Origin: an uncultured archaeon
Lineage (GTDB): Archaea > Micrarchaeota > Micrarchaeia > Micrarchaeales > CABMGC01
Assembly (NCBI GenBank): GCA_963752955.1
Contig: CAVWAD010000007.1
Location: 64,386 to 128,385 of the forward strand
Reading direction: 5' to 3'
Length of the DNA: 64,000 nt
Positions within the stretch are counted from its first letter, which is position 1. Every line of letters starts with the position of its first letter. This document shows positions 9,055-9,363 of the stretch, one piece after another. The notes beneath the pieces are model-generated. The model made no database searches. It saw nothing but the letters and a program-made list of their open reading frames with translations, and had not been told where the DNA came from. The translations under genes and the position numbers were made by a program.

Positions 9055-9363
9055 TTATTTGCTGGATGTCAGGATGTAGTTCTTGACCACCTTGACCACC
9101 TGGTCTATGGCCTTCTCTATGTCCGCCTTGGTCTTGGCGCCGGTGCAGATGACCTTCCCGTTCTTGAATAGAAGAAGCGCGACCTTCGGCACCTTTATCT
9201 TGTATATGGCTCCGGGGAACTGCTCCGGCTCGTAGTCCACGTCGGGGGAAGCCTTCGCTATGGCGTAGAGGTCGAGCTCGACGCCCAGGTCCGCGCTCGC
9301 GACTATGTTCTCTATCTTGAATGTCGGATGGAGCGCAATCTTCTTCTTCGCCATATCTACCAC
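9055..9363 (-). CDS. single-repeat TATA-box-binding-protein-like protein (half-size TBP)
   Basis: 99-102 aa (ATG at 9354 or GTG at 9363). FKIENIVASADLGVELDLYAIA....DYEPEQFPGAIYKIKVPKVALLLFKNGKVICTGAKTKADIEKA is one complete TBP repeat. No room or frame for a second repeat: the stop is at 9055 and the DedA gene ends at 8998. Confidence 0.75.
   Translation of the reverse strand: MVDMAKKKIALHPTFKIENIVASADLGVELDLYAIAKASPDVDYEPEQFPGAIYKIKVPKVALLLFKNGKVICTGAKTKADIEKAIDQVVKVVKNYILTSSK

Follow-up and report, generated by a model that had tools for sequence, protein, structure and literature searches.

A one-repeat TATA-binding protein encoded at the canonical TBP locus of the Micrarchaeales, probably in a derived state

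The window analyzed here is a stretch of 64 kb from an uncultured member of the Micrarchaeales, an order of tiny symbiotic archaea. Its ORF list contains a minus-strand ORF at positions 9055 to 9363, which lies between a divergent gene for ribosomal protein L21e and a convergent gene for a DedA-type membrane protein, and which encodes a single repeat of the TATA-binding protein (TBP). Translated from the ATG at 9354, the protein has 99 amino acids, MAKKK...TSSK (MAKKKIALHPTFKIENIVASADLGVELDLYAIAKASPDVDYEPEQFPGAIYKIKVPKVALLLFKNGKVICTGAKTKADIEKAIDQVVKVVKNYILTSSK), and is identical to the database protein P0001; an alternative in-frame GTG start at 9361-9363 would add three residues. We refer to this protein and its short orthologs as half TBPs.

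Table 1. Genes and sequence elements at the half-TBP locus of the window
Feature	Position	Strand	Basis and remarks
Single-repeat TBP, coding sequence	9055..9354	-	99 aa; stop TAA at 9055-9057; ORF list, PF00352
Purine-rich Shine-Dalgarno-like stretch, GGTAGTGGT	9359..9367	-	read from sequence; function inferred
E2, proximal palindromic A/T box, TTTATAAA	9373..9380	-	read from sequence; role inferred
E1, TATA/BRE-like box, ACATATATAAATACCTTTCA	9383..9402	-	likely core promoter; function inferred
Short palindrome TCCGCGGA followed by TTTTT, directly after the stop codon	9042..9054	-	read from sequence
Ribosomal protein L21e, divergent	9430..9747	+	probable ATG at 9439; Pfam Ribosomal_L21e; syntenic anchor
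DedA/VTT-domain membrane protein, convergent	8357..8998	+	PF09335 VTT_dom; bounds the 3' side of the TBP gene
NUDIX, DUF655 and RpoF (Rpb4-like RNA polymerase subunit)	9756..11229	-	gene tables; conserved cluster beyond L21e

An earlier note, made from the letters of this DNA alone, had described the gene as a stand-alone TBP repeat of 99 amino acids and had proposed a count of its PF00352 domains, with a failure to score as TBP as one way to refute the description. The Pfam scan upheld the description: exactly one PF00352 domain was found, with an E value of 4.1e-30 and a score of 103.9 bits (cutoff, 22.9), which places the protein in the TBP domain family. The match covers residues 12 to 93 and profile positions 2 to 85 of 85 in one stretch, and all three repeat landmarks quoted in the note (IENIVASADLG, YEPEQFPGAIY, and LLLFKNGKVICTGAK) were located in the protein. 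The two repeats that define a canonical TBP are not both present, since the protein has only one. When compared with the repeats of solved archaeal TBPs, it scored 79 bits with the N repeat and 74 bits with the C repeat of 2z8u, and 70 and 79 bits, respectively, with those of 1pcz; its identity to either repeat is 40 to 45%. The NCBIfam models of full-length TBP align to the protein with one of their halves, N or C, and score it at 72 to 98 bits against curated cutoffs of 181 to 347, so that it fails every one of them. Because half TBPs score below these full-length cutoffs, their named orthologs are labeled "hypothetical protein" in NCBI, and Micrarchaeales genomes can wrongly seem to have no TBP.

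The note had also held that there was neither room nor an alternative frame for a second repeat, with the DedA gene ending 56 nt away. Both points stand: the distance is as described, and tblastn across all frames of the 64-kb window, with the half protein and a two-repeat archaeal TBP as queries, found no second TBP repeat. No further TBP repeat was found in the 9.4 kb past the right end of the window either, and no TFB was found among the ten candidate ORFs of 258 to 355 amino acids in the window that were scanned with Pfam.

The spacer between the L21e and TBP genes is 75 nt long and contains three A/T boxes, of which E1 is the central one, ~41 nt from the ATG of TBP and ~44 nt from that of L21e. 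The E1 motif, A[TC]A[TA]AAATA[CT][CT], occurs once in the 64-kb window versus 0.02 times expected by chance, and it was found upstream of TBP in 57 of the 80 usable loci of other species. Possibly, E1 is a shared promoter common to the divergent TBP/L21e pair. The TATA-like box that had been noticed ~22 nt upstream of the gene does exist, namely, as E2, whose center lies at that distance from the TBP ATG, but the best-conserved element sits ~20 nt further upstream. Other A/T boxes in the window begin 30 to 39 nt upstream of start codons, and because E2 is so much closer to the ATG, E1 is the likelier core promoter. A box comparable to E2 is found 18 to 21 nt downstream of the E1 start in ∼40 of the 57 loci with E1; many of these boxes are perfect palindromes, with the sequence TTTATAAA, ATTTATAAAT, or TATTTAAATA. 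By inference only, E2 may be a second promoter or a site of TBP autoregulation. Directly before the ATG, GTGGT or GTGAT is present in most orthologous loci. At the other end of the gene, the palindrome and T run after the stop codon are inferred to be a likely archaeal oligo-T terminator within the 56-nt gap before DedA; a scan for bacterial-type terminators made no call on this palindrome.

A protein search over 5.8 billion proteins yielded 1,068 relatives, of which we examined the best 120. Among these, 107 are 93 to 132 amino acids long and 73 to 100% identical to the window protein, and every one of the 107 contains exactly one TBP domain. These short homologs come from NCBI, JGI, ENA, and Logan assemblies, with contigs of up to 651 kb. 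A protein identical to that of the window is encoded on an independent ENA contig, and a near-identical form of 98 amino acids, with 100% identity across the 97% of the query that aligns, occurs with the same neighbors in JGI, Logan, and ENA assemblies. We also scanned GTDB at one genome per species, which gave 183 genomes with a relative, and analyzed the best 80 loci from 79 assemblies. All 80 are single-repeat loci, 76 to 96% identical to the window protein, on contigs of up to 771 kb, and they are labeled Micrarchaeota, Micrarchaeales, or Micrarchaeaceae. Across 87 loci, tblastn showed one repeat per locus, except for a case at a contig end (L053, see below), and the ORFs at the orthologous loci are intact, with sizes of 95 to 134 amino acids, in at least 79 GTDB assemblies. 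Thus, the survey of related lineages that the note had recommended revealed single-repeat TBPs to be widespread in the Micrarchaeales (found in >100 clusters and in the genomes of at least 79 GTDB species). One canonical TBP among the hits, P0085, was set aside as uninformative; its contig has 7.9 kb, with an IS110 transposase next to the TBP gene.

The genes around the half TBP have the conserved order RpoF-DUF655-(NUDIX)-L21e<->TBP-><-DedA-Pelota. L21e adjoins the half-TBP gene in 79 of the 87 loci and DedA lies downstream of it in 69, while RpoF and DUF655 are found in 58 and 61 of the 87, respectively. Sister Micrarchaeota have two-repeat TBPs of 182 to 186 amino acids that are likewise divergent from L21e-RpoF-DUF655. 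Examples are P0301 from Bilamarchaeaceae (185 amino acids), at the same L21e-RpoF-DUF655 position, and P0346 from a Micrarchaeia lineage (182 amino acids), also at this position; the TBP P0029 from Anstonellaceae, again at this position, has at least 150 amino acids and is cut by the end of its contig. Because the sister Micrarchaeota keep a two-repeat TBP at this place, the half gene is the positional ortholog of canonical TBP: it occupies the TBP locus of the lineage and is the descendant or counterpart of the canonical TBP gene, not an extra paralog inserted elsewhere.

The half TBP is under extreme constraint. Compared with the window proteins across the same loci, identities are 76 to 96% for TBP, 50 to 88% for L21e, and 38 to 81% for RpoF, so that conservation is higher in the half TBP than in its ribosomal neighbor L21e. 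In 107 cluster representatives, 50 of the 99 residues of the window protein are at least 98% conserved. Residues N16, T71, F46, and F63 are 100% conserved in the 107 clusters, and residues 41 to 48, YEPEQFPG, are at least 99% conserved. From the alignment to solved TBPs and from textbook structures, we take N16 and T71 to be the minor-groove Asn and Thr, F46 and F63 to be the two intercalating Phe residues, and Y41-E-P-E-Q-F-P-G48 to be the TFB-binding stirrup. By this alignment, with the roles taken from textbook structures, the full set of DNA-contact residues of a TBP repeat (two Phe, one Asn, and one Thr) is present. The TFB/TFIIB stirrup motif YEPE[QL]FPG is present as well, on sequence evidence only and without binding data. 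As far as alignment can assign them, all residues at known DNA- or TFB-contact positions of TBP are invariant.

Using two copies of the window protein joined head to tail as the query, we retrieved four proteins of 195 to 196 amino acids (P0393 to P0396) that are 77 to 82% identical to this tandem over 98% of its length. Their two repeats are 81 to 87% identical to each other and 84 to 91% identical to the half protein P0021. In three independent assemblies, one of the four, P0394, is encoded at the locus of the half TBP (MoxR-RpoF-DUF655-L21e<->TBP...DedA-Pelota), and its flanking genes are as close to those of the window as the flanking genes of the half-TBP genomes L007, L008, and L011 are. 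At the junction, which reads ...AAG TCG GCAAAG..., one sense codon (TCG) replaces the stop codon and the ATG. In a neighbor-joining tree, both repeats of P0393 to P0396 fall inside the half-TBP clade, with 61 to 68% bootstrap support for half and fused repeats as a clade, and the four N repeats cluster with one another, which indicates a single duplication-fusion event. Since two half-type repeats were fused at the same locus, one repeat type can supply both lobes of the saddle. As judged from the sequences, no other indirect evidence speaks as strongly as this re-fusion for one repeat type being able to serve as both lobes of a working TBP.

For a tandem of two window copies, AlphaFold2 without an alignment produced a poor model (pLDDT 38), while the same tandem reached a pLDDT of 92.8 and a pTM of 0.86 when 140 natural two-repeat TBPs were supplied as an alignment. 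Foldseek aligned the latter model to whole TBP saddles (1mp9, 2z8u, 1ais, 1ytb, and others) over 180 to 188 columns, with an rmsd of 1.8 to 2.1 Å and TM scores of 0.84 to 0.92 to the PDB TBPs. Because the model was covalently linked and guided by an alignment, it shows compatibility only and not dimerization; the natural fusion P0394 supports compatibility with a ten-stranded saddle as well.

We consider it likely, without regarding it as settled, that the half gene encodes the general TBP of the Micrarchaeales and that the protein acts as a C2-symmetric homodimer, the homodimerization being inferred. The earlier note had raised the possibility that a stand-alone repeat rebuilds the saddle as a homodimer, and the orthology of the locus, the constraint, and the natural fusion favor this idea. 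In such a mechanism, two identical 99-amino-acid subunits would pair via their central β-strands, generating a ten-stranded, C2-symmetric saddle with four intercalating Phe residues and two identical stirrups. The dimer would bind and bend an A/T-rich TATA box, and TFB could dock on either stirrup, being recruited on whichever side has the BRE; binding to TATA and to TFB is, like the pairing, inferred. Promoter polarity would then be set by TFB-BRE and not by the asymmetry of TBP. According to what is reportedly the accepted rule, attributed to Bell and colleagues in 1999, the TFB-BRE contact orients the archaeal preinitiation complex, and a symmetric TBP would be mechanistically tolerable because this contact already decides the orientation.

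That the half TBP is the only TBP of its hosts is likewise an inference, given that we covered 64 kb plus 9.4 kb of the source genome and ∼8 kb around each ortholog. An accessory role, in which a full-length TBP encoded elsewhere is modulated by the half protein via mixed complexes or via competition for TATA or TFB, as proposed for TbpA, therefore has to be weighed first; we think it unlikely, though it is the rival that deserves to be taken most seriously. Every single TBP-domain protein yet described occurs alongside a full-length TBP (PMC3597702), and in the complete genome of the micrarchaeote Mia14 two members of arCOG01764 (TBP) are listed, whereas of the other 14 DPANN genomes in the same table 13 have one member and one has two (PMC5498576, Supplementary Data 4), so that most have a single TBP. 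The second arCOG01764 protein of Mia14 is unidentified, as the table gives counts only and the ortholog table carries no annotation, and it is not established that Mia14 has the half type; none of the protein clusters looked up bore a Mia14 name. The supplementary material published on A_DKE and ARM-1 contained nothing on TBP. An accessory role sits poorly with a gene that occupies the locus of the two-repeat TBP of the sister lineages and is more conserved than L21e, and the in-place swap of the half gene for a fusion of two halves is the behavior expected of a principal TBP. Further evidence comes from contig sizes. Among the 240 entries listed by two full-length-oriented searches, none shares its longest-contig size with a half-TBP contig, and the full-length hits among the best 120 of the 1,068 relatives likewise show no size match. 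The half-TBP contigs compared include those of 771, 727, 658, 651, 587, and 530 kb. This comparison extended to the best 120 matches per search, and a divergent canonical TBP scoring below ∼200 bits would fall outside it. The suggestion in the earlier note that the gene might be a truncated paralog modulating a full-length TBP is thus disfavored but not excluded, the genome being only partly covered.

A somewhat weaker rival is a split TBP, in which a divergent second half comes from a distant gene and the two unlike halves heterodimerize. Split genes are common in DPANN archaea, and the two arCOG01764 members of Mia14 could be read in this way, too. We nevertheless found no second half within ∼4 kb in 87 loci, and no assembly with two copies among the best 80 GTDB hits, except for one strain-mixed bin. 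Moreover, the half has no N-like or C-like specialization, and both lobes of the natural fusion derive from the same repeat type. We doubt the split reading on these grounds. Two sets of candidates for a second copy or second half were rejected. The apparent paralog pair in MAS1.bin53 (L052 and L058) is a strain mixture, because both contigs share the neighborhood at different coverage. The divergent single-repeat proteins P0175 and P0181, which are 60 to 64% identical, adjoin L21e and are orthologs at this locus, not paralogous second halves. Taken together, the accessory and split readings keep a minor but appreciable part of the probability, because whole genomes were not covered and because Mia14 has two members.

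It is very improbable that the domain was recruited to a non-TBP role, such as monomeric RNA or nucleic-acid binding similar to that of the TBP-fold domain of RNase HIII, with another factor serving in initiation: monopartite TBP-fold domains with other roles do exist (PMC3597702), yet the half protein is 40 to 45% identical to genuine TBP repeats, retains every residue aligned to a DNA- or TFB-contact position without variation, and is the positional ortholog of canonical TBP. Finally, an artifact or decaying gene, with one repeat lost by misassembly, deletion, or pseudogenization in the assembly of the window, has only the unusual gene size in its favor and is already refuted by the comparative data, since the gene is found in identical or near-identical form in independent ENA, JGI, Logan, and NCBI assemblies and an intact short ORF is present in at least 79 GTDB assemblies, with 50 of 99 residues at least 98% conserved across 107 clusters; the misassembly or deletion that the note had named as a refutation is hence excluded.

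The general, homodimeric TBP that we favor can be compared with several known systems. With the canonical archaeal TBP (∼180 amino acids, PRK00394, arCOG01764), the half TBP shares the domain family, the invariant Asn, Thr, Phe, and stirrup residues, and the locus, and it presumably does the same job. It differs in having one repeat per chain, with no asymmetry between an N and a C lobe and no linker between repeats; because of the single repeat per polypeptide, any saddle that it forms must be a homodimer with exact 2-fold symmetry. Halobacterial TbpA is also a stand-alone single repeat that clusters with genuine TBP repeats. However, TbpA-type proteins are very similar to the full-length TBPs with which they co-reside, and TbpA is not essential (Brindefalk 2013, PMC3597702), whereas the Micrarchaeales gene is highly conserved, lies at the canonical locus of a whole order, and has no co-resident full-length TBP that we could detect. 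The monopartite TBP-domain proteins of Thermococcales resemble the half TBP in being stand-alone proteins of ∼95 amino acids with the TBP fold. They are ∼82 to 136 amino acids long, distant from TBP, form their own cluster, and coexist with normal TBPs (PMC3597702, Table 3). Unlike these proteins as described there, the half TBP matches PF00352 strongly and keeps the contact-aligned residues; with 40 to 45% identity to canonical repeats, it is not the distant, separately clustering protein that a member of the Thermococcales type would be. Neither type of single TBP-domain protein in PMC3597702, TbpA-like or Thermococcales, replaces canonical TBP. In the full-text literature, which largely leaves subscription journals uncovered, we found no account of a TBP that has a single repeat or acts as a homodimer from Micrarchaeota or other DPANN archaea; apart from unrelated papers, only Brindefalk 2013 came up. 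The closest two-repeat relatives are the sister TBPs of Anstonellales and Bilamarchaeaceae and those of Diapherotrites: the signature FPGAI...LLLFKNGK is present in both of their repeats, as in the half, and the repeats are 53 to 56% identical to it. Unlike the half, these repeats have Val or Ala in their consensus where the minor-groove Thr would be.

TBP is the textbook example of a pseudosymmetric protein, and it is thought to have descended from a homodimer via duplication and fusion. To our knowledge, the single-repeat stage has been only hypothetical until now, and the single-domain relatives known are divergent or accessory. Like the postulated homodimeric ancestor, the half TBP has one repeat per chain and, by inference, a symmetric dimer as its functional unit, and P0393 to P0396 repeat the duplication-fusion proposed as the origin of the two-lobed TBP; unlike the ancestor, the half TBP is probably no relic. 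The monopartite prototype of TBP is still treated as hypothetical in a paper from 2026 (PMC12917281). A living lineage with such a protein makes the homodimer ancestor of TBP testable. Three natural forms are available for experiment, namely, the one-repeat TBP, its re-fused close relative, and the older two-repeat TBPs of the sister lineages, and with these one can ask how much the asymmetry of TBP matters for DNA binding, TFB recruitment, and the direction of transcription. A stronger version of the proposal, in which the Micrarchaeales run all initiation with an obligate symmetric homodimer as their sole TBP and the gene has repeatedly collapsed and been reduplicated, could in our judgment equally well prove right or wrong. 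If it is right, both steps of the textbook origin would be observable in living lineages, and promoter polarity would rest on TFB/BRE alone.

Regarding the history of the gene, we conclude that the half gene is real, that it encodes an ancient-looking TBP with one repeat at the canonical locus throughout an archaeal order, and that it is probably derived. Within one protein, the N and C repeats are 64% identical in sister Micrarchaeota and 56% identical in Diapherotrites, compared with 40% in the TBPs of other archaea and of eukaryotes. With the sister TBPs, the half protein shares 53% identity in the N repeats and 56% in the C repeats; with other TBPs, the corresponding values are 41% and 42%. 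In N-versus-C log-odds, the half is intermediate at +10, whereas canonical N repeats score ∼+30 and canonical C repeats score ∼-31. Neither identity nor log-odds gave a clear answer as to whether the half was derived from an N or a C repeat. In the neighbor-joining tree, all repeats of Micrarchaeota and Diapherotrites group in a single clade, separate from the N and C repeats of other archaea and eukaryotes, with 79% bootstrap support, although the deeper branches are weakly supported (39 to 79%). This single clade points to a secondary collapse or homogenization within DPANN, and it fits either an old homogenization or a collapse followed by reduplication in the Micrarchaeota/Diapherotrites group. 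The Micrarchaeales half may have kept a single-repeat state or may have collapsed later, and the data do not decide between the two. Rather than a primordial form that survived, the half TBP probably represents a state that was derived, or that recurs, within DPANN.

At the end of contig L053, 99 nt identical to the 3' end of the gene lie in frame upstream of a full copy, a possible second fusion. The repeat number is thus labile in the half-TBP lineage, as indicated by the recent fusion together with this possible one. The unusually similar repeats of the sister and Diapherotrites TBPs, the refusion in P0393 to P0396, and the possible fusion in L053 are the observations that fit repeated collapse and reduplication.

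The two-repeat TBPs of sister lineages within the Micrarchaeota (P0301, P0346, P0011 and ∼100 related proteins; loci L088-L092) are built from repeats that are unusually alike, with 64% identity within one protein. In these proteins, Val takes the place of the conserved minor-groove Thr in the N repeat, and Ala does so in the C repeat; the N repeat also has one extra cysteine (VVCVGCK). A complete single-repeat TBP of 109 amino acids with a lysine-rich N-terminal tail (P0217, from locus L095, a 746-bp ENA contig) clusters in the tree with this two-repeat sister type and not with the half-TBP clade of the Micrarchaeales, a placement hinting that a one-repeat form arose independently. 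On a short contig (L093:4002-5525; CAZPAZ010000036.1), the gene for P0085, a canonical asymmetric two-repeat TBP, directly adjoins a transposase of the IS110 family.

Joined repeats were also seen at the end of one contig (L053:1-415; JAGWHJ010000032.1, MAG REEA76), where the first 99 nt match the 3' end of the half-TBP gene exactly and the reading frame continues from them, with no intervening stop codon, through a full half-TBP copy (...NYILEPQEEKRTKGARKPVLNPKFKIEN...). Either a tandem duplication-fusion took place here very recently, separately from the re-fused half-type proteins P0393 to P0396, or the arrangement is an assembly artifact of the contig end. Within the representative library, three proteins gave three or four TBP-repeat matches per chain (P0121, 376 amino acids; P0150, 702 amino acids; P0122, 272 amino acids), which may reflect gene calls that were fused or TBPs that truly have multiple repeats.

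Several well-studied archaeal TBPs have an acidic C-terminal tail. In contrast, many half-TBP orthologs carry variable lysine- or arginine-rich tails at the N or C terminus (P0012, P0016, P0053, P0117 and P0217), which might provide extra nonspecific DNA affinity.

The spacer between the half-TBP gene and the divergent L21e gene contains an element, ATATAAATACC(TTTCA), that is present in 57 of the 80 loci and has no other occurrence in the window. It is followed 18 to 21 nt downstream by another A/T box, in many cases a perfect palindrome. This spacing, together with the palindromes, would be in keeping with a symmetric TBP, with a bidirectional promoter or with autoregulation.

Regarding copy number, two proteins of the TBP family arCOG01764 are listed for the complete Micrarchaeota genome Mia14, and of the 14 other DPANN genomes in the table, 13 have one and Candidatus Haloredivivus G17 likewise has two (PMC5498576, Supplementary Data 4). 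Two contigs of a single MAG (L052 and L058; JAJZKU01, MAS1.bin53) share the same TBP neighborhood at coverages of 57x and 111x, and this MAG is a mixture of two strains. Five typical Micrarchaeales TBP loci (L071, L078, L012, L034 and L066) come from assemblies labeled "bacterium," "Candidatus Saccharimonadales bacterium" or "Candidatus Marsarchaeota archaeon," which are probably misbinned or mislabeled MAGs.

Elsewhere in the window, a run of six ORFs had no Pfam match at an E value of ≤1e-3 (1e-5 for four of the six) and is typical DPANN "dark matter." The InlB B-repeat protein is probably a surface protein.

Coordinates of the L21e-TBP spacer and of other genes in the window
Feature	Position	Strand	Description
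L21e-TBP spacer region	window 9373-9420 and equivalent spacers in L002-L085		carries the highly conserved element and the A/T box
Six consecutive same-strand ORFs	window 16759-23889	+	281-502 aa, high third-position GC
939-aa protein	window 4424-7243	+	five InlB B-repeat (Flg_new_2) units, glycine-rich C-terminal domain
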